A stretch of DNA of 64,000 nt from Saccostrea cucullata (GCF_032062105.1 NW_026930709.1:248001-312000), one strand, 5' to 3'; positions 5,801 through 64,000 are shown, numbered from the stretch's first letter. Numbers and translations are program-made. Notes: generated by a model not told the origin, from the letters alone.

Positions 5801-7590
5801 TACCTATTTTACGATCACTGTTAGCATTGTTTCGACGAATATGGTACATGTAAGCTAAAAAATGGAACTTCTATTGTCCATATTCGGATATGATAAAGAA
5901 ATGTTTGAAATGTTGAACCGCATGTACTGAATTTTGACAATGAGCCTCAGAACTATCATATTACTCATATAAAGTAATTACCATTTCTTTTCTCTCTTCT
6001 GTATACAGGATTTCTCTGCAAGAAGAACAATTCTGTTAAGGTAGGATTCTTCTCTGGTTTCTGACTAGATGAAACATTCAAAGTATATTTGCTTATATGT
6101 CTTATATATTTAGGTGCAAGGGATTTACAAGACCACATTTTTCTCTCCTCATTTGAATTGTACAACTTTAAATAGAAATGGTAAACTGCGCTTGAAAACT
6201 AGCAGGGACTATATTTTTGGCAGAATGGTGGCGTATGAAAATATCTTCTTTTCTGCCTCTCAAAATTATTACAGAACAATGAATTTAGTTATAATTTTTA
6301 TACAATCAAAGACTTCAAGAAATTTTCAAATGTAAGTTGAATCAATAATAAGGGACTAAACTTTCAAAATATATCAAATAAATATGATTTTTCAAACAAA
6401 CTAGAATTATGTTGGCTTTTAAACGCTTCCAATCAAAGTACAGATATGAACCATTAATCCATGAAAAGTATTTTTTCTCTCTTAGTAAACGGTCAAAACT
6501 TTGTTTTTGTATCATTTTGTATATTTAAAAGACTACTTTATTGTATGTGAAAATAAGAAAAAGTTAAATATAGGAAGCATCTGAAAGTAACTTATATATC
6601 CTTAAAAATTAAGAAAACAGAGAAAATTCGGATTAGCCAATATCCAGTTTAGTTAAATTATTTATGAAAATTTGGTAATATCATGCTACAGACCCGATAT
6701 AGTAATATCTTTTTATGCAAAAAGAACAATCTTTAAACTTTTGAAAGAGAAGTAGACATCATATGATTGGCAACAGTATTTTTTTTATTCTTAATGGCAA
6801 GGAAAAAGATAATGACCTTGACCTGACCTTGCCTCTTATATGAAACGGTCAAATTTATTTTCACTGATACTATGACTGACTAATATTGTCTTCTTGATTC
6901 TGTGAAAATTTCATTAACTTTTAAATACAAGAAAGATGAGAAGAATCCTACCTTAATCATTGACATTACTTCCTCGCAATCTTAGCAACAACCACACAGA
7001 AGTCTCAACAACACATAGTGTTTATTTCATTTTTTAATAGATAAATTAATGATAATATCATAATAATGGGGATCTTTGAAAATAATGCAAGCAAGCTGAA
7101 TGTTATAATAATGAAAAAGGGTTAAAACTACGAAATAGTGATAAATCTCAATACATATACCGGTATATGAACAAAGCAACAAACATCCTCAAGAATTCCA
7201 GAATACAAATGAACATTTACAAGTATCTCTGCCATCTTTTTCTTTCATTTGACAGTTTCTTGAATCCCCAAGAAGCGTAATACTTACGTTGATTTCAGAT
7301 GGTTTCTTCTGCCCATATAAGATATAGTTAGATTCAAATAAAGGCTTTTGTGCCAAATTTGCATGAGATTCATCAGAAATTTGCAGTCGTTGCAGTGTTT
7401 TTTCCAATTCATTTGTTTGAATAATCAAATAAGTTACAGCTACTGACAGGAAAACAACCGCAGCTCCAAGTACTTTGATGCATGTTGATAGGTATTTCTC
7501 ATGGCTGCAATTTGCACCGTGTTCAGATTTTTCCTGAATCGGCAGACACAAACACGTGCTTTCCGATTTCGGTAAACAATTGCACTCCAT
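2819..7590 (-). CDS. TNF-superfamily ligand TNF-A (type II membrane protein, ~328 aa, 8 coding exons)
   Basis: Exons (minus): 7288-7590, 5982-6015, 5326-5379, 4809-4844, 4587-4670, 4183-4357, 3233-3322, 2819-3029. All GT-AG, phases 0,1,1,1,1,2,2, 987 nt open. TM segment VLGAAVVFLSVAVTYLII, coiled stalk, furin-type REKR. THD motifs KKVVHLT, IKVRSPGIYLVYAQV, GMFKLECDD, SYFGVVQI. Confidence 0.9.
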
Positions 7591-7720: not shown

Positions 7721-9134
7721 TTTGTTAAAATCTGTTCTACATGTAAATTCCCTCTTCTTATAAGGTCGTTTCAAATGAATGGTTATTTGTAAATATTTTT
7801 TCGGCAGTTGTCTATAAATATACTTGAAGATTTAAATATACATGTACCCTTGAACTCAGCACATAAACCTGCAATATCTCGGCGAATTCTGTAAAGATTT
7901 ATCAATATATAACCTCGATACTTCTTTGCCTGAATTCTTTACGTCTCACTTAGAAATATACCGTTTAATTGGAATGCCCCTGGTAGTCGGTGCCAGAAGC
8001 TGAATTCCTTTTAAAGAAAGATACTACCAAATTCAAATACTAATTCAACTAAAAAAGATTGGCTATTCCGAATTCCTCTCTCTATTTTTTTTAAAAGGGA
8101 ATATTATACATTTAATGCATGATAGTGAGGGAAATATGAAGACTTATTCAGCCAAGAAAAATCATATTCCCCGAGGGCTTCGCCCGAGGCGAATATGATA
8201 TTTCTTGGCTGAATAAGTCTTCATGTTTCCCGAAAATTCATGCAATGAATTGTTTATTATACCGAAACAAGCAAAACCTTTTAAGTACGGGTCTCTGTAA
8301 GAATCAGACAATATGTGTATAAAAGTGAATCACGAGGGTTCTCAGAATTGGATGATTTTACACACATAGGTTTCTCTTACACTATGAACCACTTATGTAA
8401 AATGAAAATTATTTTGGGTACTGGTTACTATGGAAACATGGTCAAAGAAATTTTCCCTAGCAACCGATCAATTTTCAATGTGGATGGGCAAATATATCAC
8501 TAAACTTAGAGGCTTGAAATTGAATGTGAATATTACCAGAGGGGTTCTTAAATAATGTTATCATAAAGATAAACATTTCAAGTGATAAAACCATGTAATA
8601 CATAGAATTTTTATTTTAAGATATTTCTTTTACGGGCAATGGAAGATATGCATGTTTTGCATTTTTTGCTGATTCAGCATTTTTGTTAATTTGGGCAATT
8701 TTCAAGGCCATATATCTCAAACTTCTGGCACAATACAAAAGTATGGTATATTTTACATAAAGGCAGAGGAATATCCTTTTTGGAATTTAAATTCAAAAAC
8801 GTGTGTTTTTTAATATTTACAATCGGTTGCCTAGCAACAAAAATGGATGTTTTGATTAAGAGAAAGAGACAATTTGTCAAATATGCGAGTTATTTACGGA
8901 ATTAAATCTTATCGATGGATAACAAAATCAATTTTTAAAGTAAAAACATATTTCTGAGACTTCTTTATGAATTCAGGAATATTTTGCAAATACTAATCGC
9001 CATAGCAACAGAAAATTCCCCATAGTAACAAAGAAAATAAATCAACTTTTGACACGAACTCATATATGTTTGTAAAGATTATTCAGTGTTTGACAGACCA
9101 CAGTGATTTAAGAGCCTCAGTACATTTTTTGTAC

Positions 9135-40804: not shown

Positions 40805-43800
40805 CTACGAAAGAAAAACAACCCCAAAGAACGTCTTGTCTGGGCTAATTGTTACAGCCGTTTCTCTGGTAATCACTTTAATCTGAACTGTGTCCCCCTT
40901 CTTTAAATAATGCAAGCCCATCATATTGCACGTCTTCTCCTTTGCATTGAAGAAATCCGATATTTCATTTGGTTCATATTTGTCAATACTGTCGGCACAG
41001 TGAAAGATTCTTTTGTCCGAAACAAAAATTCCGAAGAATTCTCTAGGATCCTTTGTAAATTTCTCTATCTACCAAAAGAAACAAATTTTCTTTAAATCAA
41101 TTCAACTTAATGCATGGTATCGATGCAGAAAAACTAATATAAGCTTAATTTTTTCCAGTCATTTATTCTCTAAAAAGGATTATGAAAACAGTTGTCTTTC
41201 AATCGCATTTCACTTTCACAGAAAATTAAATTACACTGGTTTTCAATCTTCTTCTGTTGTATTAAAATTTGATTATCCTAATGACCATTCCTCAAAAGGC
41301 CCGATAGGAAAGAACATGAGAATACTTGCAAATTTTGTAGAATATATTTCAATAAGATAAATTCTTGGTTTGAAAATTAACAATCTGAATTTGCATAAAC
41401 ATTATTAATATTATAGTAATGTTTCAAGTGAAACAATACACATAAAAATTCATTTTAAAATATGCACACATATATATTTTGGAAAAAAACCCGTTTATAT
41501 AAAATAACTTTTAAAGATATATTTTCTTCATATATCCTTATACAAAATTAGGTTTCCATTCCACTTTTTAAAAATGGAGGTTATGCCATAATTTGGGTCT
41601 TTCAACAATCAGTTGAAATGTCTATGGGTACCCGTTATTAGTAGAATATTTTTGTATTCAAGCAAAATTTATCCAAAAACTTCATGAAAAAAAGTTCCTT
41701 GCTTTGGTCTTCAATTCAACATTTGAATATACCGATGACGTTTTATTAAGTGTCAATAATCATTTTCATTCTTACTTTGATTTGATACATGTCTTTGATT
41801 GATTGATTGATTGTATGTTGTTTAACGTCCTTTTGACATTTCTTAAAAGGAAGTAAAAGATACCACAGAGTTAGACATATATTTTTTTTATTTGAATATT
41901 TCACACAAAAAGACATTGATAGTAACCCAACAACAAAACTTTCAGATAAACACGATTAGTTCAACTTTTCTTTTGTCAGCTTGTCTTAATATTTATGTAA
42001 CAATATATGCCATTATCAACTAAGGTGGACTCTATGCCTTTCAGTTGATGTGTATACTCCTCGTACGAACGAACTCTAAAACGACGCAAGCTACTAAGCA
42101 TTGACAAATACGTTGACAAAACAAGGATCTCAACAGTCTCGTTTAAAGTCATCAGACTCATCAACATTATATGGTGGATACAATGCCCTTGTTAACAAAG
42201 GCAATCTATTATTAACGCGAATGTTGAATCATTTTTAAATAAAAAGTCGTTAGGCCATTGTTTTCGCACTGATTTACATTTGCCCTGGCCAGTCACGACA
42301 AGGAGCACCTGCCAGGACTGACCAATCGAGAGGAAATGCTTACTCCTCCATGGTACCTGACCCTATCCCTGATGGTTTAGAGGTCTTGGTTTGTTATGTT
42401 CCAAACTTGTATTGTTCCAATGAACTTTTGAGCTTAATTAATTACTATTCAATATCTACAAGTTTCATCAGTCTAGATTGTTTTAAATGAAAGCTGTCCA
42501 TTAAGATAAATACGTGGTATTTAATGCACCAGGTTTAAACTGATACTTTGTTGGAACAAACCTGTATTCTTTGTAGCTAATGGGCTTTTACGAAGAGCGC
42601 TGACTTTTACAGTTGACGGCATACTTTTACACTAGGAAAATGCACAGAAGCTCTTTTACGATATAACATTAGCTCAACATTCAAATAAACGAGAATAACG
42701 GATTATTTCAATGCAAATATAAGTTGTCCATGATTTAGCTCAACATTCAAATAAACGAGAATAACGGATTATTTCAATGCACATATAAGTTGTCCATGAA
42801 AAAAACGACAACCAACCTACCCTCAACTCACGGCCTTCACATGCAAGTGCCCCTAACACTCTATGATCATTAACAAGGTTTTCTTATGTGTTATCAATTC
42901 TGTACCTCCGTACATGATACAAGTTTAAATGTCCAAGTATGCCGTCAACTGTAGAAGTCATTGCTTCTCGTAAAAGTCCACTAATACTTAATATTAAATC
43001 ATATATATGGATAAAAATACATGGAGTTCAGAAGATATTTGACAACATTATAATTTAACGAACATACTGCCAGAATGGGTGGACTTTTTCAAACAACAGG
43101 GAATAGTTTAATTTCGCTTTAATAAGGTACCATACACATACCAATAGTTTAGTTTATGTTACAAAAAATAACTTTAATAAGATACCATACACAGTTACCT
43201 GAGCATATAAAAGATATAGTCCTGATTGTAGCACTTCAAATGATTCGTGTCTATCCGTATTAAGTCTCATTATGGTGTTTTGGTACTCATTTTTCATCCA
43301 GACAGCTTCTTGAAAATATGGAATAGCTTTGTATTTCTCTGTAAATGTGAAATTTAAGATAATGAATTTTATAAGAATCAACTTATTATATTGCAGTTTG
43401 TTCAAAAACTTTGATAATTATATTTTTTAATTTGATTCTTGTTCAAGAATTTCCATATATCAAAATAATGATCAAAGAAACTTACACAGAATGAATATTA
43501 ACCATGGTACAACTCTGAGATGAAATTGATATGTTTTCTTTTTTCCTAATGTTGATACTAGGGAATTATCTTAAAATACGTCAGATACAAACATAATTAT
43601 TGCGTATTTATTCATAAAGCGTGAAAAACCAGAAGTCTCTGTCGAGACTGAAGCTCTACTGGTTTGTACTTATAGCAAAGGAAGAGAAAAGTTCTTAAGA
43701 AGTTGGGAATTGAAACTTTACCACAGCAATAAAAAGAATAATGATCCTTGATTAAGTCTCTTTATGTTCTTAGTATAGTCTACTTGCATGCCACATTATA

Positions 43801-46800
43801 TTAAAATCAGATCAAAATTGTAGGAGGAGTAGCATTTTGAGATTTTTTAACAGAAATTTCTATTTTTAGTTACCATGGCAACACCGTTAATCGAAATCAA
43901 AAACCAATATACAGAATTACGTATCTTAGTGTAGTCTACTTGTGTGCCAAGTTATATTGAAATCAGACCAAAACTGTAGGAGGAGTAGCATTTTGAAAGA
44001 ATTTCACAGAAATTTCTATTTTTAGTAACAAGGCAACACCGTTCATCGAAATCAAAAACTGATAAACAGAATTATGTATCTTAGTGTAGTCTACTTGTAT
44101 GCTAAGTTATATTGAAATCAGACCAAAACTGTAGGAGAAGTAGCATTTTGAAAGAATTTCATAGAAATTTCTATTTTTAGTAACAACGGCAACACCGTTA
44201 ATCGAAATCAAAAACCGATAAACAGAATTATGTATCTTATTGTAGTCTACTTGTGTGCCAAGTTATATTGAAATCAGACCAAAACTGTAGGAGGAGTAGC
44301 ATTTTGAAAGAATTTCACAGAAATTTCTATTTTTAGCAACACGGCAACACCGTTCATCGAAATCAAAAATTGATATACAGAATTAAGTATCTTAATGTAG
44401 TCTACTTGTGTGCTAAGTTATATTAAAATCAGACCAAAAATGTAGAAGGAGTAGTATTTTGAAAGAATTTCACAGAAATTTCTATTTTTAGTAACCACGG
44501 CAACACCGTTCATCGAAATCAAAAACTGATACACAGAATTATGTATCTTAGTGTAGTCTACTTATGTGCCAAGTTATATTGAAATCAGACCAAAACTGTA
44601 GGAGAAGTAGCATTTTGAAAGAATTTCACAGAAATTTCTATTTTTAGTAACAACGGCAACACCGTTAATCAAAATCAAAAACCGATACACAGAATTATGT
44701 ATCTTAGTGTAGTTTACTTGTGTGCCAAATTATATTCAAATCAGACCAAAACTGTAGGAGGAGTAGCATTTTGAAAGATTGTTTACAGACAGACAGACAG
44801 ACGGACAGACAGATGGACGGACGACGGACGCATTACTATCGCATAAGCTCTTCTGGTCTCTGACCAGTAGAGCTAAAAAATTACCTCGACTCCAAAATGT
44901 TCTGTTTGAAGGGCAATAGAAGTCTTCTTTACTTAGTACACAATCTACAATGTTACAAATTGACAAAAAGGTAAATGTAGCTCTAAACATTGCTTAAAAT
45001 AGTAGAGGTAAGATCAAATAAAAAGTTAAGGAATGAAACTTTAACCTTGCGGAGGAAGAGATGATTTCCACTTTAGAAGTTTTTAATTTCAGATGCAAAC
45101 TACTTGACTGGATAATTATATAGAAACCACGGTGATTAATTGTAGTTGAATTATATCCACCTCTCGCGGTTTTGCTTCAGTCATCGTGCTTTTACATGGC
45201 AGACAATCTAAACCAATCTCCGTATGTGGCATACTTACCTTTTACATTCGGTGGACTGGTAATAAAATGGGCTGCTTGAAATTTTCCCTAAAAACAGAAA
45301 AATCGAAATTCTTATAAAATATTTCTTTTAGAACATGTTTTAGTGAACAGGGCCACATGATGAGACACCTATTAGTAACATTAGTAATACTGCTTCATAC
45401 AGGTTGGGAAAAAATCAAACAGACCTCCAAACCATCAGAGATAGGATTATGTTCCATAAACGTTTAGTACGAACACGGATATAGCGAATTCACCGATATA
45501 ACGAAGTTTTTCTGGGTCCCCGTCAAAATTCTTAACAAATCTTTTTAAAATTTTACGGTTATAACGAACTCTGATATAACGAATTTACGGATATAGCGAA
45601 CTGATTTTAGTCCCGTTGAGGTTAAATATAATGAATTCTACATCTTTTATAACGAACTTTCAAAGATTTCAAAATTTGAATAATGGAACTGACTTTATTT
45701 TCTCTCAGCATTTGTATATAAAATTCAATTCATAATAAAACCTTAGTTATCGAAGGTATGTTTTGTAATATTTGCTTCCCCAACATATTTGATAGTAACA
45801 CTTGAAGGAAAACATTCATATTGCGAATTCGCTATATATGGTTATACGAATTCGTTATACGGATATAACGAATTACGGATATAGCTAATTAAATTCACAG
45901 GTCCCCAGGACTTCGCTATAATCGTGTTTTACTGTATTATTTAGAAAGAATTTATAAGAAATAACTGCCATTTCATTCAAGCTTATAAAATTCAAACATG
46001 CATTTTTTTCTCTTAGTTTCTGCATTTACGTTATAGTCGCTTACTCAAATAAAATCTGTATATATATACTGAGTTTGTATACTAAAATTGAAATTAACTT
46101 ACAGGGGGGCCTTGTATGCCAGGAATTCCTGAAAAAGAGTGAAACGTGAACAACTGAAAATGTGAAAAATGTTTACTATAGCTAGACTGCAGTGATTTAT
46201 AGATAATTATGTTCTTTTGAGTTAAAGTACAAGTTAATCACTTGCGTTTAAAGTTTCCGAGTAAAAAATGTTCTAATGGGAGTTTAACAACAAATTTAAT
46301 TTTTAATTTTAAAAATAGAAATGCAGTTTACTTTTTTGTAATATTATAGAAAAACATGCTTATAACGAAGCGCCGGTAATGGGCGATTTTACTACGTCAT
46401 ACATGTATATGTAATTCGTTGTCATCATATTCTTTATATGTTTAAAACCCACGAAGAATGAAAATTTCTTCGCTATAAGCGTGAAACCATTATAATCGTG
46501 TTCCACTATAAGCGTGATTTAATATACTTTCAACTTGCCTTTTTCTCCTCGGGGACCCGGAGCCCCTGGTGGACATTTACATCTTCTGCGTTTTCTGATT
46601 TTGCTTCTTCTACGTTTGTTCTTTCGGTTTTTCTCTTTAAAAAAAAATACAGGAATCTTATTCGCATATTTTACTTTTATGACAAGAACAAGAGTATTTT
46701 AAGTTCCATAACTCTTCCATATCTCTTTCCAACACTACGCCTTTACATTTTCCCTGTCTCTTGTAAGTTTCTTAAAAATTCCAAAGCTTACAATAACTAA

Positions 46801-47416
46801 ACTTTATTCGTATTAAATTTTCTTTTTTGCTTATCGCTTTATACTTATAAAAAGTAAAATTCTACTTAGAAACTAAGTTGTCAACCCTGATACAAAACCT
46901 ACTAGGTTTGGGTGGTTTAGTTGAAGTGTCGACGCTCCGTTCGATTCTTTTCACTTCTTCTGATACACTAACAGTGTGCATCACGGATACAACTGATTCT
47001 ATGGAGTCCTAAAATTTAAAAAATTCTATAATTTTATTTTGACAAATTGACGTTATTGATCAAACATAGATCTAAATCTGAATTGAGAAATCATAAGAAT
47101 TTCCAAAATGCAACGTACAATGAATGTCAGAAACAGCTTAGTAAAATTCTAGAAAAGCAATTAAATTTGAAATATATTTTTAAATTAATTTATTCCAAGT
47201 AGATAACAACTTACTTACTTTTTCATTGTCTTTATATTCAGGAAATGACATGGATGCTACAATTTTGGAGAGTTCCCTTACTTCACTCTTCAACGCTGAC
47301 ATTTGGTAGGCAGACCAAATGCAGTAAAGAAATGCAGCAACAAGCAACACGTTCTTCGCAACGGAAGATGCAGATAAAGAAAAATTTATATCTACTTTCC
47401 TTTTCGGTTCAGACAT
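40805..47416 (-). CDS. Ectodysplasin-like TNF-superfamily ligand TNF-D with short collagen domain (~312 aa, 8 coding exons)
   Basis: Exons (minus): 47219-47416, 46903-47008, 46539-46634 (GC donor), 46103-46128, 45239-45287, 44885-44944, 43199-43338, 40805-41068. Phases 0,1,1,0,1,1,0; 939 nt. TM NVLLVAAFLYCIWSAY; KKNRKNKRRRSKIRKRRR-CKC-PP-GAPGPRGEKGIPGIQGPP. THD motifs QAAHF, FEVLQSGLYLLYAQI, FHCAD...KTCNMMGLHYLKKGD, TFFGVVFL. Confidence 0.88.
41560..42460 (+). mobile_element. Degraded Penelope-like reverse transcriptase remnant in the last TNF-D intron
   Basis: Frameshifted RT motifs (QQSVEMSMGT, resembling GIPMGT; FEYTDDVL, resembling YIDD) followed by the Penelope-type 3' block. A SINE-tail fragment (gatt)n sits at ~41795-41830. 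Confidence 0.7.
42574..42987. mobile_element. MITE-like inverted-repeat element with internal 66-bp tandem duplication
   Basis: Inverted arms cttttacgaagagcgctgacttttacagttgacggcatactt / aagtatgccgtcaactgtagaagtcattgcttctcgtaaaag. Direct duplication 42669-42733 / 42735-42799. Confidence 0.7.
43627..44880 (-). mobile_element. HINE/Helentron-type element carrying a 156-bp satellite array (~6.4 units, 43765-44777)
   Basis: Minus 5' TTTTTAGCTCTACTGG with subterminal inverted partner ccagtagagct, (GTCC/GTCT)n microsatellite, units spaced 155-156 bp, 3' hairpin agtctcgacagagact. A decayed relative lies at ~55977-56320 in a Kelch intron. Confidence 0.85.
45465..45934. mobile_element. Pogo/Tigger-like MITE
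   Basis: Inverted ends acacggatatagcgaa / ttcgctataatcgtgttttactg|ta with internal tataacgaa repeats. Related piece at ~46345-46520. Confidence 0.65.
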
Positions 47417-48212: not shown

Positions 48213-48988
48213 TTAAAAAAAATGACCAGATTAAAATTTTCCTACCAGCAAATTTCTTCTAAATGGCATTATACGTTAGTAAAGTAAAAGGTGGAGATAA
48301 TGAACAGTGTTAGATCTCAAAAAAATCTATAAACAATACAACGTTAAGAGGGCATAACACACGAACCCGTAAATTCCAGAGGTGGGATCAGGTGCCTAGG
48401 AGGAGTTAACATCCCTGCTGACCGTCACACCTGCTGTGACCCCTATGTATTAATCAGGTAGACGGGAGATTTCGGAGTCAAATTCAGTATACAAACAAAG
48501 ACCTAACAATTAGTATAAAACAAGTCAACGAGAATAAGACTCCAAGTTATTAGGTCATATTTGATAACAAGGTCATTTACATATTGTTGACTTTAAATTC
48601 AAAGTGGGTATGTGAATTCCCTGTAACATCAACTTAAGAGGCATGTCTAGCTTTAAATACAATTTTCGTACCCAGAGCAAGCTCTTGAGTAGCGAATAAG
48701 TTAGAAGACAGAAACACCATAAGCAGGTGAGAGTGGGAAAATGCTACATTTATAAACAAACTTTACGATAGAAAAGCTGGTTATCTCGTTTGTCCTGTAA
48801 TTTAGTAGTTTTTTTTTAAATTAATTTTAGCCTTTTTAATTCCAAATTCTTTGAGATATACCAAGTCGACAAATACTCAGTAAATGAAAATATACTGTTA
48901 ATAGATAAATCATTAAAGAGATGTTAGATGTGATTCAATTTATTATTCAGACAAGTTTTTCAATGTCATTATATGTCTACATATTTTG

Positions 48989-51929
48989 TCACGTTTTGAG
49001 CAATATTGCCCCAAAGTTTGTATTTTCAGGCTTGAGTATGACTGCTGTATTTGCTGTAAGGAATCTGATGGAGAGCTGACTACCCTGTTGTAGAAAGAAA
49101 ACACCGGACACACTACAGGTTTTCCCTTTGGAGTACATAAAAGGATTAGAAGGATTTGATCTAACGTAGTCGAGGCTTTCCCGGCAGTCCAGCTTACGAT
49201 TGCTGTCAATGTAGATAGCTACGTCGTGTGATGATTTTGTGGCCTGGATCAAAACCTGGAGTATATTAATATACGACAAAAAAGTTTTATACTGTATCAA
49301 GTAAAGAATGAAGGTTTAAATTATGGATGATACAGTATCAGAACTATAGGATTAGAAGTTATGGAATGGAAAACAGATTGTAGGGGAAAGGTCAGAAAAT
49401 TTATGAAACACCTGCAAATACTTAACAAAATAACAGAAAAAGAAAGGAATCATCAGAAAATTGAACCTGAAAAGAAGTACATTAAAACAGTCAAACTACT
49501 ACTAGTTTGTGGACTGGAGTTTAGAAGGGCTAACCTTTATCTGTAGATATTGATAATGTAGTATGTACTGATATGATTCGTAATCCATATTCACTTTCTA
49601 TTTACTGATAAAGGTAAGTGTCAAAAGCATCAAGAGATAAAGATGGGCGTAGAAAACTATTTCAAGGCAATCCAGTAACACAGTGCCAATGATCTATTAT
49701 TTTAATTATCAACAATACCAAAAAAAAAAAATCTTATTTACAGTGTATGTTATTTGGCTTAGAAAATAAGTGGAATTGCAGAAGAAAATAAAGATATGCA
49801 ATGCATGGTTCGTTTTGCAAGACAATTGTTCATTGATAAGAATTAAATTAAAATAGAAAAACTCCCTTCTTATTACATGTTTTACAAGAAAATGATAAAT
49901 ATCTACCATTGTAACTGTTAATTAAATGAAAATATCCTGGTAACTTAAACACTGGGATATACAGACTTTCCAGCTGGTAAAGTGCTTTTAAAATCAACAT
50001 CAACAAAGAGAAAAAAAGTCATGGGAGCTGTCACAAATTATAACGATTGGAGGATACAGAAACTGGATGCACATTAATACAAGAAACATGTAAGCTTAGG
50101 TTGAATTACGTAAGTAAACTCCAAATGATTAGCAAAGGGATGAAAGAGAAACTGAAGTATAAATTAAAATGGAAAAGAATCTGAAAGTTTACATTGAAAT
50201 ATTAAACTTCTCCAAATTGGACTAAAAAAAATCTTGCATCTTGTGTCTACAGTGTAGAATACGAGATCGTTCAAAACAGCAAGTTTACAATGACATAAGA
50301 AGAAACTTGTAATCTACCAAAATGGTACCAGATAAACCGAAATCTTACATTGAGATACAAAAGATGAAGGCCAGATTTGGTCACTGTGAAGGAACTTGTG
50401 TCTGCTTGGCTTTGTGAAAGGGGTTCAACCTCCTCAATATGTTGTGACTTCATCCAAGATGAAGGTCTGAAAAATTTGACTCCGTGTAGAGGATCTACAA
50501 AGAGTTTGTGGATAGAGTATACTACAATATAGATTCTAGAATGTGGAAACAATTGGAGGCAAAGGAAATTATAATGTATTGCTACAGCAGAGACGTAATA
50601 AGCTTACCATTTATCATAAATGTTTGGTTTGCACAGAAAGTCCCCGACCAGACGTAGCAGCAGGAACCTGGAAAAAAAGAGCTTCCTATGATTAATACAT
50701 TAAAAAAATCAAAAAATAGGATGTAAATAACGGTATGGTTTATTAACTCTCGCTGCTCTTAAAGAAGTTATTTTGATAATTTAATTTGCTTTTGACTTGT
50801 TGTTACGTAATGTTTAATCTTCATTATGAGATGCTTTCATACTGAACCAACCTTTGCATTTTATTCCTTGTTTCTGATAAATGTCGTGATACTCGTGTGG
50901 CACATAATGAACTGCAGTTACTCCTGAATTGACCTAAGACAGAGACGAAACGAAAACATTAGTAATAAATTTTCATCATAATTTTGTTCGGATTGAATAT
51001 GATTATCAGTTCAAAATTATCAGAAGATGAGAACTTACATCACTGAGTAATTCCAGACCTGAAAGAATAAAAAAGAATTACAATTATGCGATATCATTTC
51101 GTTATTGAAAAAGCTCGTAAGTTGTTTTTTTAAATAAATACTTATTGAAAACCAACTTAATGCAAAATGGAAAAAATCGTACTTGGGCCTCCAGACAAAA
51201 ATCTTTTCATTCCTGTGTTTTCTGAAAAGCAAAAACAGACAAATTGCTCAACTCTTTGAAGTTTTTCTTGCTCAGTTACTTTTGTTGTAAATAATTACTT
51301 TCATTGTATTTCATATACTTATAATACTTGCATCTTTCTTATACCCATTTCAGTCGTGAAACTTTTTTAAAAAAGAAAATACTTGGAAGCCAATTCAATA
51401 TTTTAATTATTTACGTTCTCACGCAAACTATTTTATGCTATCCGACTAGAAGCGCAGTATATACTTAAGTCGTTATTGATAATTATATACTGAACTACTA
51501 CCTCTGGTCAGCATATTTGTTCTATAACTATCTCCAGCAACTTCGTCTTGCATTCTTTCAAGATCAATAACTGACTTTTGGTCTATACTCTACAACAGAA
51601 ATGTGTATTAAGAGACGGTGTGCTTTGATGCATATTACAAAAAAAGAAATTATTTGAAAAATTGTTTTTCAAAATATAGAACAGGAACAAACCGTGATAT
51701 TCCAGTTGAAAATTTTTGTTGAACTTAAGATTCTGCTCAGATTATTCACTTTTTCCACTACGTTTTGCACTTCGTTCATCATCTTTATATAAATGACAAG
51801 CAAACAACTGCAAACTCCAATGACCATCATAAAAAGTAATATAACAGCAATTTTAATTCCAGCTTTCTTTCGATACTTTTTAGACGTATATGCCATTTCA
51901 TTTAAGGAATAAACCTTGCAATTTGTCAT
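48989..51929 (-). CDS. TNF-superfamily ligand TNF-E (paralog of TNF-D without collagen, ~312 aa, 8 coding exons)
   Basis: Exons (minus): 51693-51929, 51502-51589, 51183-51221, 51039-51058, 50852-50933, 50608-50667, 50349-50494, 48989-49255. Phases 0,1,1,0,1,1,0; 939 nt. TM IAVILLFMMVIGVCSCLLVIYI. THD motifs TAVHY, FTVTKSGLHLLYLNV, LDCRE...KTCSVSGVFFLQQG, TNFGAILL. Confidence 0.87.
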
Positions 51930-53773: not shown

Positions 53774-56700
53774 CTATGTTTGCTGTTTGTACACATCATG
53801 CTGTATATTGGCCACAACACAACCAAAGGTGCTCATCACTGTGGGTAGTTCCTGTCCCTCCACCCACGTCTGTTTGCCGTTTTCCTCCTTTAACCAACAC
53901 AGCCCGGCCATCCAACTCTTGTCATCCTCCCCTCCCACAATTAAAATTGTATTGCTGTATTTCACTATTCCTAAAATATAAATTTGTAGATTTACTTCAG
54001 TTTTCTGATAACATTCTTGTAAATTAGACTAGATATAAAATGAATCTCACAAAGTAGTACTCATGAACAAAGCAACTTTTAATTTGACCTTTGATCTAAT
54101 GGAAAAAGCTTGAACTCTACTTGCAGCAAATAAGTTGACTCTATGACTTAGTCTCAAGTTATTAAAGCGATATGAGCTGCATTTTTAAAAATTTTATTTT
54201 GCTGTCAAAATGTATTATTGTGATAAATTTGTATCTAATTTAAACCTTTGTGATCAATTAGATTTTAATAAAGCATTATATTGTTTCTGAAGAAAGACTT
54301 CTTTACATTCGAATATACAGTATTATATAAGAAATCATTATTGTACAGGACGACAATAATGCAATTTTGATTCAATCAAAGCTTATAAATATCTCTTACA
54401 TCATAAATATGAACAACAGAAGTTTATAAACATTCTTTTTTTCTGCCATTAAAATAGATATTTACAATTTTGCAACAAAAAATTCCAACATCAAAGTTGC
54501 AGCTCATATTGCTTTAAATGATCTTGTATACATGAAATGACTGATCAACTCTTGTAAAATGCAATGACTCTTCACTCAATTTTAATTGAAGAAATTACAT
54601 AAAAATGTAAATTTATTAGAAAATCATTAAATTTGATAAAAATATATATATATATTTATATCAATAAAATAAACTATCATTTATGCATAAAATGATTTTT
54701 ATTAATTCTTTTAAACTGTGAAACTAATGTATCAAGGGAGATAACAAAGAAAATTTCCTTGAAATTTAGCAGAGAGAAGCATTCTGAATTGAATAATTCA
54801 TGTTAAAACTTTTCATCAATAAAAAGCTCATTAATTATCATTAGTACCTGCACCACACAGGGCATTAGGAAGCTCCGGTCCCTCACTCCATGTATCTGTG
54901 GCTGGATCAAACACCTCTACTGAACTTACACAGTGCTCAGGGAGAAACTCCTTCTTCCATTTGTCACTGAGTTCTGAATTTCCTCCTATGTATTAAAAAT
55001 ATTGAAATATTTCACAACTCCATTCTAACAAGGAAAGAAGATCTTTTTTTTCTGACCGGAGGAATTTAATAATTCATGCAAAAACTCCATAAGGTTTCTC
55101 AAAATTTAATTTAGAATTTAAATATTTGCAATATCATTAATATTAAATCTGTGTGAATAGAAAATGTCACTCAGCCAGAAAATATACCTTTGATTTCTTT
55201 TTTGAGAAAATTAAGATACAATTTATAGATTTTTTGGTACATGTATATGTGCATTGCTATTTCCTAAATACTGGACTTCACGTTAGAAACTTAAAATTAG
55301 TTTCTTAGCTGTTTCAAATACCTTCTTTTCATAATAGTAAATACTTCATAAAATTCTACTATTCCTTGATTACTGACCAATGACATAAATCTTGTCTTTG
55401 TGAACCACACAGCCAGCCAACACTCTAGCTGTAGACATGGGAGGTAACTCTACCCAGGTATCATCAGCTGGATCATACCTACAATATAATATTTATACAG
55501 GTATACTCACTAAATTCTACTATTTGAGTTTACATATTACTTGCAAAGTTTTAAGTTAAAACACTTTTATCAAAATTTATTTTCAAAAAGCTTGAGCAAA
55601 GAACAAAACTGTTACCAGGTAATATAGAGGCATGTCAAAAGGAGACTTTTTGTTCAATGAACTTGCCAACAAAATCATCATTTTGCAGTATATCACTCAA
55701 AATTTGTATATTTGTACCTATATGCTGTTCTACTGATTTTGTCAGTGGTCTCCCCACCAAACACATAGAGTTTGCCTCTGTAACTTATGCTGGTCATAAA
55801 CCTCAGAGGAATTGCTAGAGGAGCCACCAGTATCCAGGCGTTAGTGTGGGGGTCATAACGCTCAACTGTACTCAGAATTTCTGATCCGTCCTGTCCACCA
55901 ATTGCAAAGGCATACCTGTCAAATTAAAAGAAGTTATTCTAAAATTTGAAATCGATAAACAAATTATATCTGAACAAACAGAAGTCTCTGATGAGACCTT
56001 GGCTCTACTGGTTTGTACTTACAAAGTGCATTATAATAATAAATAAAGATGTATCTCTGTACAATCTACTTGTGTTCAAAGTCTAATTCGACCACACTGT
56101 ATGAGACAAGGCAATCAGAAGGAATTTAGAAAATATTCTATTTTAGTGTTCATGACAACATTGTCAAAAAAAAAAAGAAGATAAATGACAAATAGAACTA
56201 TGTATCTTAGCATGTAGTTTTCTATCAAGTTTTACTGAAATTTGACCAAAACTGAAGAAGAGTAGCATTTAGAATTGATTACAGACAAAATTTATTTCCT
56301 TACTAAAGCATAAGCTCCAGTATTAAAGCTAATATATTATGACTTTGATAAGTCTAAGCTGCATGTGCAGATTGTCTTTTATCATCTTCACTTGCCAAGG
56401 GTTTCTGATCTGAAATCTACTCTACAACTAGATTTCAAACCCTTGGTTAGAAAATATGGTCTTTTATAATTTTTTTCTTCAAAATATCCCATCTTAAAGT
56501 ATTGCAGTTCTTATCTGTTCAAAAAATTTAATTACTGAGAATAAACCAACATTGGTTAAAAATTGTTCATTCATATGACAGTGTGAAATTTTTAATATGT
56601 TCAAAGGTCTATGAGTGACATACAGTGATGAAATTTAGTGACTCATGTAACCTAACTATCAATAAGACATACAAAGTGAATCAAAAAGAAAAATATGAAA

Positions 56701-59700
56701 TACCCATCAACTATAACTAAAGAAAACTGTGATCTGGACATGTGCATTTTGGCTTTTGGTGTCCAGCTCTTCTCTATCTGATCAAAGACATAGAAGTTAC
56801 TGGACACGCCTTCAGTGGTCACTGATCCTCGGTAGTTCAGCTTCCGAATCGATCCCCCCGCCAAGTAAATCTGGTTATCCCCAGTAATGGCGCACCCTGA
56901 AATGGAGTGAAGAAAAAATCAATTAACAAAGATACAGAATAAAAACAGGAAAAATCTAATCAATGAATTAGAATATATTATAATCACACAAGATCACAAA
57001 GATAAATGTGAATGAAAAATAAATGCAATTTCTTGATTTTTCATATAAACCTGCATAGGAAAGTGCAACTTAATGAATACGTTACAAACCTGGGGTATAT
57101 AAACTCTGTGGTAATTTACAAATGGTAATGACTTCTCCAGTTTTAGGTAAAAGCATCTCCATGCTGTTGAACTTCTTCATTTGTTCCTCTGTGTAGGGAT
57201 TGGCAATGATCATCACTCCCGTCTCGTACACCATTCCTCTCCGAGGCATGAGATTCAGGTCCATTTCGTGTTGTCTGTTGCGTAGCATGTGAAAATATCT
57301 CACAGTGTCCAGAATTTTTCTCAGAGATTCACAATCTTTCAGTGTTTTGCACCTGTCAATTCTATCACAAAAGTAATAAGAGCTAATGTTTGCAAATCTT
57401 ACACAATTCATTATTTCCATTAGATGTTCCATTCTGTTGTCTCTGTCCGTCAACAACCATTCCATGCAGGCTTCATAAACCGTCTCCTCATTGGTTACAT
57501 TAATGTCATCATCGCTTATAATCTCCACTAATTTGTCTGAGGGTAAGGACAGAAATTCCTGTTGTTTACACAGAACAGCAAATTGGTTGTTAACAATTTC
57601 TTTGGCTTTTGTGGCCAAGTCAGTGCATTCGTGAGCTTTTGCAAAGAAGTAAACACCAATACAGTTTGAAACAGTGATGTGATTCATCATAAACTCTGCA
57701 CAGCCACTTCTCAGTGAAAGTAACTGAAATCTGTTCGATGCTGACAGTAGATGTTGTACTGTTTCTTCTGAAAGCTTGACCTGGCCAGTGTATATATAGT
57801 CTAGGACTAAACCCATTGTCAATGGATCCAGCTCCTTCAATGTGATTTTGTTTTGCTGGCTTTCTGCCATATTTGTTGAAAACATGGCCATGAAGAAGGG
57901 ACTTGATATAGCAAGAACATTTTTATGACATGGGAATTCTGCTTCATCTACACAGAGTGTCACATCAACAAACTCTTTTTCTTGGTATAGTTTGGAAAAT
58001 CCCTGTAGAAGATTGACTGCCCTCTCTTTATCCACAAACTTGTCTTCAATGGGTGATTCATACTGAGTCGTAGAATCTAACAGGCTCTCCTGCTCCTGGG
58101 TACTTGAGGGATCATCTGGACTACTCATTTTCTCCTGAAATTAGATGGAATTTCCATGTATTAGAGGTATTAACTGATTTTAATTTTACATTTTTTCATC
58201 ATAATGCATTTTGCTGAGTATAGCATATTGCCTTCTAAATGTCACCAAAGACAGATCTATCTTTTAGTGAAATAATGTAATTCAAACTAAAACATTTTCA
58301 TTCAAAACGTTTAAAATCGGACTTTGGTGTGTCAAACCATCGGGGTATGGTGCACCCAAGACCATCGGTACTTTGGAGTCCCATCACACTTTGCAGATGT
58401 ATTAACTGATTTTAAGAAATGCATTTTGATAGCATATTGCCTTCTAAATGAACTTTTAGTGAAATAATATAATTCAAACTAAAACATCAAAATGCATGGA
58501 CAACATAAATAATTTTAGATCAGTAATATTCATGATATTGGTAATAGTGTGACAGGTGACCATTGCTTTATTCCTTATTAACATGTTTGTAAAAATATAT
58601 TAGGGGAAACACAATATCAGGGGACTCTTTGACCAAAATTGGGGACGTTTTGACCATTACTTCGGTTCCCATATGATTTTTTCCAAGAAAAAAAATGTAA
58701 TTAAGGGGGCGCTAAATTCGACCAAAATCAGGGGACGCTTTGACTAAAATTAGGGGACGCGTTTACCAATATTTGGGGGCGGTTTGGGGGGATGTTTTGT
58801 AACATCATTTTACTGTAAAATTCTATAAGGGGCGCTTTGACCAAAATCAGGGGGCATTTTGACCAAAATCAGGGGACGCTTTGACCGGGACGGTTTTATT
58901 AGGGGGCGCTTTGACTGGATTTCATTCATGATATTGGTAATAGTGTGACAGGTGGAGTAAGAAACACAATCAAGAGTTTAAACAAGAAACCAGTACAAGA
59001 ATGGGATGCAACAAGGAAACAATCATAAAAGAGAAAAGACAATCTGTGTTAGGACCAAACAGATCCAGAGCAATCTGTACATTAATTTGGCTTTGAATCA
59101 CCTATATGGCTTTATTTAGTTGTATTAATAAGTAATTCATTTTGTAACATTTACAATTTTCTGATTGTACCAGATATTGGAAAAGCTTTAATGAATACTG
59201 ATGCTTACAATACGAATAAGAAAACATCTTTACAGAGGTAAACAACTGAAAATCATAATGTGATTATCTAACAAAAAAAAAAAAAAAATCAGACGTATTA
59301 AATTTTTTCAAATGTAAGATATTAATGGCCACTTGCACAGGTCTCGGTTAAACCTGGGTCAGTGTAATCCAGGCTTAAGTTTAGCTCAAATTTGTTGATT
59401 CACTTGCACACCTGAAATACTCAGGTGAGATCAGCTCAGTATATTACCCTAGTTCTGAACCTGGCAGTAGGGAGGTTTAAACTAAGGTTTGGCATAGAAC
59501 ATGTAGAATGGATGAATATTTTGATAGAATTGATATGGTGACTATTATGTGGAAAAGCTCATAAGAAGAGAAAAATGTAATAAGAGATAGACAGAATCCA
59601 TTTTTATTTTATTCTGAAAAAAGAAATTGGTATGCACAGTAAATTATCTCCATTTTTCAGACACATTTAGAAAAAAAATATAAGATAATGTAATTCCACT

Positions 59701-61233: not shown

Positions 61234-64000
61234 ATGGCATTACCGTTTCTCCCGGGAAACTCTTTCAACAAAAGCGTAAGTAATATAAGATATATTTTTT
61301 ACTTAGTTTGTAATTCTAAATCTTAATAAACTTACGAGAAATGTGTTAGAGGAATAGAAATGGGATAAGTGTTTTCTGATTGCAGCATGTGTTGATAGCA
61401 GATGCATTTTTCAAATTAACAACATTGAAATAAATCTGTTGCATTTTATATCATCTTTTAAAAATATATACGTCTAATATCTTACATATGCATAAAAATC
61501 ATATTGTGTTCCATAAATTCCAGCTTGGTAAAACAAAATATCACAAATCTCACCATTTTGACTACAAAAATGAAGTTTCTATGCTGGTTGGAGAGGAGAA
61601 ACCTGGTATAGGTGGTGAGCTCCTTAGGGGTCAAAAAATAAAACCACAAAACACAGTCTTCCCAAAGGGAGAAGGAAGCAACTTGCCTGCATGGGTGGCC
61701 TTTGACAGACAGGTCCTGTGTTTTGATGCATATTTCCAAGAGGCTGTTTACGAGAAACGTGAAGAACAGTACAGAGTTCGTAACTGCAAGATCTATTTCT
61801 ACTTAGAAGATGATTCCATTCAAGTCATTGAACCAAGAGAAAAGAACAGTGGAGTACCACAAGGTAAAAAATAAGACACACTCAACTGTTTTGCAAATGA
61901 TTTTCTTACTTGAAATTAAAGTAGATCCTTGCTTTGTGTCATTATCATACATATCATCTCTTTTTCTCATAATCTTATTTTGCGACTGTTAAATCGACAT
62001 TAATGATCACAAATACCATATCAGAAGAGAGTTATTCCTTAAATCAGAATTTTTCAGTGTCATATATTTGTTAGTTGCACAGATCCCCAAAATTAAACCC
62101 AGGCTATGAAATTCATTTTCTTGATTTACAACAGGCACACTTATCCGAAGACACAGAATCCCCAAACCAGCTCCACATGATGATGAGTACTACACTGCCG
62201 AGGACTTTAACATTGGCTGTGAAATCAACCTTTACTCTAAAGTTTTCAAGATCACAAATGCAGATGATTTCACAAAGAACTTCCTCAGGAAAATGGGAGT
62301 CAGAGTCAATGAACCTGATAACAAACCAGAAAACCCATATACCAAATATAGGAAAGCTGTAAGTATTTCAAAGATGATTCAGCCCATTTAAAACCTAACC
62401 AAATGCTAACTGAAAACGATCTACGATTTGGTGTGTGTTTTTAAAAAAGTTATTGAAATATCCTTCTGAAAAATGACAATACCAATTAATCATCAAGATT
62501 TGTTTCAATAAACAATTCTAAAAAAAGATAATGCATATAAACTCACCTAGTATAATGTGTTTTCTCCCAGATGGATGAAAGCATGCAGCCACTCAGACCC
62601 TATGAGAAGCATGACACACTAAAACAATTCTTGGACCATGATCGTCACGTCTTACGCTTCTTCTGTTACTGGGATGACACGGACAGCATGTTTGGGGATC
62701 CGCGGGAACTGGTGCTCCATTACTTCTTGGCTGATGACACGATTGAAATCCGAGAAGTCATTCCTGCCAACTCTGGTAGAGATGCTGCCCCAATGTTCCT
62801 CAGGCGTGGAAAGCTTCCCAAGAACATTGAATCCCTCCGCCAGCCAGGAGAAATTACAGACAGGACTGTACTGAATGTATTTGGTCCAACTGGTCATGGA
62901 GGCAGATATATCTTAGATAGCTTAAAGGTACATAATTGAAGTTGTAAATATAAATAGATGTATGATATTTGCTCTTGTCAGATTGACAAAATTTTTTTTT
63001 AGTCAAATATGGGCTATGAGAAATAAAATTGAATGTATAAAACTTTTTAATATTAAATGTTACAGACAGGAGCAGTGAACACAGACTTCTACAGAGACAG
63101 TGATCTAACACTAGGATCTGTACTCAATGTCTGGGGAAGAAAAATCTTACTGTGTGATTGTGACGATTTCACAAAGGAGTACTATCGCACCAAGTATGGA
63201 ATTGGTAAGTGGAAACAATAGATCACATTTAAAAGCATGAAAATTCTGTTTTGTTTTAAGGAATTTCAGCAAATATCTTTCAGACTATGTCATTATCTAG
63301 AAATTAGAATCATACTTTTAATACCTTTTCAGAGGACTTCTCATCTGTCCAATACAAGAAGAACACCGGTGGAAATCCTCCACGTCAATTCCCTCCCTAC
63401 AATGGATGGGGAAGTGAGGAGGACTCCCTCTGCTCTTGTATGGGTCTCCTTCCCAAACCTCCCAAGAGGGACTTCATCAAGTTTATGGAGAAGGACAGAC
63501 GTGGACTTGACAGCAATGTCCTCCGTTTCCTGGCCCGTATGGACACATCCAAACCCATCGACCAGGAGCGACGCTTCATCATCTCCTACTATCTGTCTGA
63601 TGATACCATCTCAGTCTTTGAACCTCCTGTCAGAAATTCAGGTAATTTGTTATAAATAAACAGGGAACAGAAAGAGTTTCATTTTTTCTTTAGAAATTCA
63701 TGAAAAAGTGCCAGAAAATATCACTGCTAAAATATATTAACTAAATAATGAACAGATTGATTCAAAGACACTGAAATTTTACATTGAATTAACAAACCAT
63801 CGATCTATTTATTTGCACAAAGTTTTAAAAAAACATTTTAGAAAGAGAAATAAATTCAGTATTGATTAAACTCTGCTCTTGAATATTTTTGAAAATTCAC
63901 AAGTTACCTCCCTTTTGGCAGGAATCATTGGAGGTAAATTCTTGGAGAGGACCCGGATTAAGAAGCCTAACCAGCAGGCCTACAGTACAGAGATGTCCCA
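61234..64000 (+). CDS. EFHC2: EF-hand domain-containing family member C2 (DM10-domain ciliary microtubule inner protein), 3'-truncated by the window edge
   Basis: Exons 61234-61275, 61524-61863, 62135-62358, 62571-62927, 63066-63204, 63333-63641, 63922->64000, phase-consistent. N-terminus MALPFLPGNSFNKSLGKTKYHKS...EKPGIGGELLRGQKIKP...PAWVAFDRQVLCFDAYF matches the EFHC2 type; three DM10 domains are visible. Confidence 0.93.

Follow-up and report, generated by a model that had tools for sequence, protein, structure and literature searches.

TNF-D and TNF-E, a probably old tandem pair of oyster TNF ligands: probable loss of the collagen segment in TNF-E and a candidate non-furin cleavage site in its stalk

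TNF-E, one of five minus-strand TNF-family genes within a 64-kb stretch of Saccostrea cucullata DNA (64,000 nucleotides, hereafter the window), is best read as an ancient tandem duplicate of its neighbour TNF-D in which the collagen segment has been eroded and whose product would still be shed, by a convertase other than furin acting at the conserved stalk motif KRFLSG. We give this reading as a whole a probability of about 0.55. The initial annotation had set the pair against each other as a shed, collagen-oligomerised ligand and a membrane-retained one. The observation on which it was based is real and reflects mostly ordinary domain loss in an ancient paralogue; the prediction of membrane retention is its weak step.

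Hand-built models place TNF-E at 51929-48989 (minus strand; exons of 237/88/39/20/82/60/146/267 nt) and TNF-D at 47416-40805 (minus strand; exons of 198/106/96/26/49/60/140/264 nt). Both genes have eight exons with intron phases 0,1,1,0,1,1,0 and encode 312 amino acids apiece (Table 1). GT-AG introns were found throughout, save for intron 3 of TNF-D, which is GC-AG. The TNF-E model is identical to RefSeq XP_062567551.1 (P0001, "uncharacterized", S. cucullata), and the TNF-D model to the S. cucullata RefSeq protein P0008, "ectodysplasin-A-like". Since the RefSeq proteins derive from the same assembly and give no independent support to the models, RNA splice joints were examined in four runs from a close relative, whose reads are mostly 90-95% alike. 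Six joints among those listed cover 7/7 TNF-E introns; one of them (50930/51183) spans introns 3 and 4, and the 23 letters between its two sides correspond to exon 4 plus 3 bases, in divergent form. The joint of intron 1 was present in contigs of one run (X2) only, and raw reads support five of the six joints with 1 to 5 reads per run. In the stretch covering TNF-D introns 1-5, five joints among those listed match these introns, GC donor included. This GC-AG intron (donor at window 46538-46537) lies inside the collagen-coding region and its joints were seen in 4/4 runs. The layout proposed earlier for both genes (eight exons, this phase string and a common 60-nt exon) is confirmed by models, RefSeq and RNA, and the models likewise bear out that the slots of the basic and collagen exons of TNF-D encode ENTGMKRFLSGGP and SLELLSD in TNF-E, without RxxR.

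Table 1. Exons and stalk features of TNF-E and TNF-D (window positions)
Feature	Position	Strand	Content and evidence
TNF-E exon 1	51693..51929	-	cytoplasmic tail, type II TM helix (~aa 25-48), coiled stalk; RefSeq, joint 51589/51693 in run X2 contigs, model
TNF-E exon 2	51502..51589	-	88 nt, phase 0-1; variable stalk without RxxR; slot of RIER in TNF-D; RNA joints
TNF-E exon 3	51183..51221	-	39 nt (96 nt in TNF-D), phase 1-1, in-frame skippable; ENTGMKRFLSGGP; RNA joints
TNF-E KRFLSG, aa 114-119	51190..51207	-	candidate dibasic (KR) or site-1-protease-type (RFLS) cut site; conservation, motif definitions
TNF-E exon 4	51039..51058	-	20 nt, phase 1-0; SLELLSD; slot of GIPGIQGPP (26 nt) in TNF-D
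TNF-E exon 5	50852..50933	-	THD strand A (AVHY), start of inserted loop (C154); RNA joints, model
TNF-E exon 6	50608..50667	-	60 nt, phase 1-1; C-x8-C-x-N-x-T insert after strand A; RNA joints, model
TNF-E exon 7	50349..50494	-	THD up to LLYLN, phase 0; RNA joints
TNF-E exon 8	48989..49255	-	THD C-terminal half, conserved C248 and C271; stop TGA at 48989; RNA joint
TNF-D exon 1	47219..47416	-	tail and transmembrane helix; RNA joint, RefSeq
TNF-D exon 2	46903..47008	-	furin-type RIER (46937-46948); RLRR/RLKR in orthologues; RNA joints
TNF-D exon 3	46539..46634	-	basic cluster, RKRR (46585-46596), CKC, first collagen triplets; GC donor; RNA joints
TNF-D exon 4	46103..46128	-	collagen triplets GIPGIQGPP; RNA joints
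TNF-D exon 5	45239..45287	-	THD strand A (AAHF); RNA joints
TNF-D exon 6	44885..44944	-	60 nt; C-x8-C-xx-N-x-T insert; RNA joint
TNF-D exon 7	43199..43338	-	THD up to LLYAQ; model, RefSeq match
TNF-D exon 8	40805..41068	-	THD C-terminal half, stop TAG; model, RefSeq match

A match of all seven phases has a chance of ~0.001 for one given string under assumed phase frequencies. Introns 6 and 7 of the two genes occupy homologous positions in the THD alignment. BLAST aligns the two proteins only from residue 132, at 26% identity; hence, homology of introns 2-4 was assigned by order, phase and flanking anchors, with no sequence likeness.

Both proteins are members of the TNF ligand superfamily (PF00229 at 27.8 bits for TNF-E and 31.9 bits for TNF-D, cut-off 23); the M. 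gigas orthologue of TNF-E scores 20.9, under that cut-off. The hydropathy of the type II anchor peaks at 3.0 (residue 27) in TNF-E and, more weakly, at 1.6 (residue 23) in TNF-D. The fold of TNF-E predicted from a 53-row alignment, which replaced an 11-row fold of pLDDT 56, is a jelly-roll with a mean pLDDT of 81.6 and a helix at residues 17-71. Using the THD of this model, the top Foldseek ranks were taken by Eiger, EDA, BAFF, APRIL and TWEAK, with arthropod Eiger first (6i50, E 9.9e-11) and EDA-A1/A2 at E 1.6e-10 to 3.2e-9. The PDB sequence search was weak (best E 0.011, TWEAK), and the Atlas feature search returned generic TNF clusters only, with Eiger as the top structure row. Across the 53 rows C271 is invariant and C248 nearly so; in the model they lie on strands 267-279 and 243-250, and they are candidates for a bond. 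A cysteine pair in the E and F strands marks the EDA/APRIL/BAFF/TWEAK/Eiger-like branch. Judged by its modelled fold, TNF-E is a TNF ligand of the EDA/Eiger-like branch that lacks the EDA architecture present in TNF-D.

With EDA as outgroup, D and E fall inside a mollusc clade with many paralogues. Eiger resembles TNF-E in having a collagen-free stalk, but identity is 15%, and the Eiger-like rows lie outside the mollusc clade and lack the Cys insert of D and E. TNF-D shares with vertebrate EDA (EDA-A1/A2; TNFSF-V22 group with APRIL and BAFF) the order type II anchor, furin site, basic cluster, collagen and THD, and differs from it in that its seven triplets are preceded by CKC; TNF-E has neither collagen nor cysteine, basic cluster or RxxR in this region. 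The Cys/N-glycan insert after strand A is carried by D and E and not by the EDA rows, and THD identity to EDA is 13-14%. Cleavage is required for the activity of EDA and its collagen oligomerises the soluble ligand (PMC5865128).

In TNF-D, the anchor is followed by RIER (87-90, exon 2), a basic cluster with RKRR (115-118, exon 3), CKC, seven Gly-X-Y triplets starting at residue 125 and the THD, which is the EDA-type order of furin site, basic cluster, collagen and THD. Both of its RxxR sites are N-terminal to the collagen, and this supports the prediction that TNF-D would be shed with the collagen attached. Its most conserved furin site is that of the exon-2 region and not, as first read, one in the basic and collagen exons; oyster D orthologues keep RLRR or RLKR at that position, together with the basic cluster, CKCPPG and seven triplets. 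The term "collagen-oligomerised" fits TNF-D only weakly. There are only seven triplets and, because of this short length, PF01391 reaches 16.9 bits, under the 27.2 cut-off. The shortness of the segment also makes the CKC cysteines a likelier cross-linker of TNF-D than its collagen, and assembly above the trimer would more likely depend on them. After cleavage by furin, CKC and the seven triplets would stay on the THD, giving a product like a small EDA.

A profile of 11 D and E proteins gave 135 representatives at E <=0.001; names were retrieved for 20 proteins among these and previous matches. THD-only trees were built with 59 rows first and then with 41 rows and bootstraps; the latter omits TNF-C of the window because of its long branch, together with 17 rows that were distant, long-branched or redundant, and neither tree includes P0092 or P0116. 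Nine rows form an E clade (support 95/92) of four oysters, two ark clam-type proteins (one from Tegillarca), two mussels and Pecten, none of them with five or more triplets. It is nested in a clade of 19 rows (94/93); the 10 rows outside the E clade are D-type, with triplet numbers of 7 in six oyster rows, 5-7 in Pinctada, 13 and 15 in two Mizuhopecten rows and 0 in Mytilus. An oyster-only D/E duplication was considered and rejected: an exclusive oyster D+E clade has an AU p of 0.00019 and occurs in 0/200 bootstrap trees. A D-type clade of oyster, pearl oyster, scallop and mussel was not rejected by the topology test (p=0.144), and a single D-type clade is favoured by the N-terminal profiles, since scallop and mussel D-type proteins score 15-37 bits with the D profile versus <=0.5 with the E profile.

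In both Mytilus edulis and M. galloprovincialis, the accessions of the E-type and the D-type protein follow one another directly. The Pinctada model P0026 (FSP39_017947) looks chimeric: it combines a fragment of an E-type THD with a D-type segment of basic cluster, collagen and THD, and it lacks a transmembrane helix. For these two reasons the tandem arrangement is probably old, as far as accessions rather than genomes can tell. The THDs of TNF-D and TNF-E are 26% identical. From the trees we infer that the duplication took place before oysters, mussels, ark clams and scallops diverged. The label "same-scaffold sister" is correct as regards the scaffold; "sister" applies only in the sense of a paralogue pair older than that divergence. 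Second copies of either gene in the species' own genome were considered and received no support: a search with exon 8 of TNF-E found two matches, both inside the window, and a PF00229 search found 16 matches on other contigs, a search that misses the split THDs of the window itself.

No RxxR occurs in the 312 amino acids of TNF-E or in any oyster E protein examined, and there is no run of at least three Gly-X-Y triplets, no PF01391 match, no stalk cysteine and no basic cluster; thus neither the furin consensus (R-X-K/R-R or RxxR) nor the collagen and basic cluster of the EDA architecture is found in it. One short stretch stands out. KRFLSG (residues 114-119) is identical at 6/6 positions in S. 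cucullata, O. edulis and M. gigas, compared with 17/81 for the whole stalk and 1/30 for exon 2, and an identity run of this length was reached in 50/20000 shuffles. Other E-clade members carry KRLSG or KRLAG (ark clam proteins), RHLR (mussels) and RKRARALR (the scallop Pecten), so that the mussel (RHLR) and scallop (RALR) orthologues retain an RxxR. The strict form [RK]-x-L-x-[GSAT], which was chosen after inspection of the E rows, themselves kin and non-independent, occurs in the last 30 stalk residues of 8/9 E rows versus 1/47 other rows (2 rows skipped); a broad form is present in 8/9 versus 14/47, with per-row shuffle rates of 0.24-0.70.

As a pattern match, KR (114-115) fits the PCSK1-7 motif K/R-Xn-K/R and R115-F-L-S118 fits the motif R-X-L/V/I-X of PCSK8, the site-1 protease (PMC6682551, Table 1, section 4), which makes both of them putative sites; the ark clam E proteins have K where the PCSK8 motif of that source needs R. 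In TNF-E the RFLS sequence lies in the luminal stalk of a membrane protein. Known site-1 protease substrates include SREBP and the ATF6/CREB3 family, which are not TNF ligands. Residues 100-128 are mostly below pLDDT 50 in the 53-row fold and, hence, KRFLSG is likely to be an exposed, luminal stretch. The KR pair aligns with the basic pair that precedes the cysteine of D-type proteins. In the S. echinata E model (P0002) exactly the 13 residues of exon 3 are missing, motif included.

One important question is whether TNF-E leaves the membrane. Its retention had been deduced from the missing furin site, and this is doubtful in view of the conservation of KRFLSG, of the RxxR kept by mussel and scallop E proteins and of metalloprotease shedding. 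Metalloproteases can release TNF ligands that have no furin site, and they are the main route by which TNF itself is shed (PMC12367993); lack of a furin site therefore never implied retention. On the motif evidence, cleavage of TNF-E by either a basic convertase (after KR) or the site-1 protease (after RFLS), taken together, is about an even bet, and release by other sheddases is unlikely.

The strongest alternative is that oyster E lost its furin site along with the collagen and is mainly a membrane-bound, contact-dependent ligand, in which KRFLSG was kept for THD packing, for a binding surface or for splicing of the short exon. A mainly membrane-held TNF-E is in our judgement rather doubtful. 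The absence of RxxR from the oyster E proteins speaks for it, and a KR pair without P4 Arg can be latent: in HEK293T cells, endogenous convertases cleaved one such site only poorly, in a precursor most of whose other sites were cut (bioRxiv 10.1101/464032). The S. echinata model does without exon 3, and KR, aligned as it is with the basic pair of D, may be a relic. Against this stand the RxxR of the mussel and scallop E proteins, the location of KRFLSG in a region modelled as disordered, the KR-L-S/A-G sequence of two ark clam proteins and the fact that no basic site is needed for metalloprotease shedding (PMC12367993). In the preferred reading, an ancient tandem duplication would have given rise to TNF-D and TNF-E with the same eight-exon layout, erosion inside exons 3-4 would have removed the cysteine-collagen segment in the E stem, and a cut at KRFLSG would yield a plain soluble TNF-E trimer without the basic matrix-binding cluster or the cross-linking module of TNF-D; release would probably be less efficient than that of the furin-shed TNF-D.

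Orthologues were compared across bivalves, as the initial annotation had proposed for polarising the collagen, and the outcome favours loss in E. Outside the E clade, 9/10 rows of the 19-row clade have at least five triplets; Gigantopelta (11 triplets), Solemya (7), Lingula (6), Acanthaster (5) and fish EDA likewise carry collagen preceded by a basic cluster. On the best tree, parsimony gives the D/E ancestor a cost of 9 with collagen present and 10 with collagen absent. At equal costs, 200 bootstrap trees yielded 76 "present", 27 "absent" and 97 ties, and all 200 yielded "present" if a gain costs 2. The state changes at least 9 times on the 41-row tree, and the Tegillarca E stalk still holds three Gly-x-x triplets. 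Loss in the E stem is thus probable on these sequence comparisons. It most likely proceeded by erosion within kept exons, because TNF-E still has an exon 3 of 39 nt and an exon 4 of 20 nt, versus 96 and 26 nt in TNF-D, and the idea of change within fixed exon slots is upheld by their retention. The mussel protein P0054 (Mytilus CAG2210305.1), a D-type neighbour of mussel E, has RHKR, a basic cluster and a cysteine but no collagen, and is probably a second collagen loss.

The opposite polarity, in which the ancestor was collagen-free, D-type lineages acquired or regrew the collagen and TNF-E shows the older state, we consider improbable. It can draw on the 25 of 41 rows without at least five triplets (the chiton row and several gastropod and bivalve outgroups included), on the "absent" and tied bootstrap trees at equal costs and on the variable D-type length of 0 to 15 triplets. 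It would, however, require several independent gains of one junction, since the order furin site, basic cluster, Cys and Gly-X-Y recurs in oyster, pearl oyster, scallop, snail, limpet, brachiopod and starfish, and fish EDA has the same order without the Cys; nor does it fit the three Gly-x-x triplets left in one E-clade stalk. A further proposal, compatible with the favoured explanation, is that exon 3 is a cassette whose inclusion gives a cleavable ligand and whose skipping gives a membrane-held one; its 39 nt in phase 1-1 and the S. echinata RefSeq model short by exactly its 13 residues would suit this, but only inclusion joints were seen among the joints listed (at low depth), 0/3 O. edulis isoform models skip the exon and the residues missing from S. 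echinata may reflect exon loss or a faulty model, which leaves it equally improbable.

The 60-nt exon supplies an insert after strand A, C-x8-C and then N-x-T, which is modelled as short strands at pLDDT 92-96 in TNF-E. Its equal length in both genes hides a shift of one codon: the cysteines are at codons 2 and 11 in D versus 3 and 12 in E, and N-x-T-F occupies codons 14-17 in both. A loose pattern of the insert matched 33 proteins of more than 250 aa among P0001-P0158, the named ones being from bivalves, snails and chitons, and two matches look spurious. None of the Lingula, Acanthaster, EDA and Eiger-like rows has the insert. RefSeq isoform models without it are 2/6 in Gigantopelta among those listed and 2/4 in Patella (P0169, P0171, P0174 and P0175); on account of these models the insert is probably a cassette exon in these snails, altering the domain surface. 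Among the 7 Gigantopelta and 4 Patella models, none has alternatively spliced collagen; they share the stalk and differ after strand A. The insert loop of D and E presumably faces the receptor. In P0018 (O. edulis E isoform X3), five residues are missing at the exon 5/6 border, which removes one cysteine of a second pair specific to oyster E.

A bolder version of the preferred reading, which we regard as a long shot, is that the E lineage exchanged furin for site-1-protease shedding at R/K-x-L-x, a motif that oysters, ark clams, mussels and scallops would have retained over several hundred million years. Release of TNF-E would then track Golgi- or stress-linked processing, its partner TNF-D being furin-shed, matrix-bound and cross-linked, and the shared mollusc-specific disulfide insert, on a cassette exon, could switch receptor choice like the EDA-A1/A2 splice.

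To our knowledge, the furin-basic-Cys-collagen module has been described in mammals as unique to EDA among TNF ligands. In the proteins compared here it is an old and labile part of the branch: triplet numbers vary between 0 and 15 in the molluscan paralogues, and the exon slots are kept. The D/E pair offers a comparison of two release modes on one scaffold, in farmed animals. If a non-furin convertase, above all the site-1 protease, does cut KRFLSG, this TNF cytokine would be released in an unusual way; if KRFLSG is not cut, the case would be one of ordinary domain loss after tandem duplication. The M. gigas orthologues of D and E may be included in Gao et al. 2015 (PMID 25910814). Our literature search, which had most subscription papers outside its coverage, found nothing on the D/E pair, its collagen or its cleavage. 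Tandem TNF clusters and expansion are documented in bivalves, with repertoires of 23 genes in the Pacific oyster and 76 in the hard clam; the published clusters are tandem as here, and the accessible parts of these two sources do not discuss collagen, furin sites or exon phases (PMC8905726, PMC12843592).

The remaining TNF genes of the window differ in their stalks or scaffolds. TNF-C (27214-34090, minus strand) combines RVKR with a basic cluster and CC and is free of collagen; the position of its last intron is shared with D and E. It contains two candidate strand-A exons, near 30715 (IDAVHIEG) and at 28883-28814 (TVEAIQVEG), plus further short candidates, and these may be alternative exons. 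TNF-A (2819-7590) and TNF-B (20185-24092) are mutually alike and have phase-2 introns in the THD, so that their scaffold differs from that of C, D and E. A 156-bp tandem repeat (6.5 copies, 91% matches) occupies 43762-44778 in intron 6 of TNF-D. Dispersed repeats with high read depth in all runs are located at 45461-45936 (TNF-D intron 4) and 48371-48415 (between D and E). Two stretches that are nearly identical but oppositely oriented, recognised from their matching reading frames, lie at ~8165-8900 and 16915-17480. The flanking genes at ~55700-58140 (minus strand) and 62075-63650 (plus strand) we take to be BTB-kelch-like and EFHC-type DM10-repeat-like, respectively.
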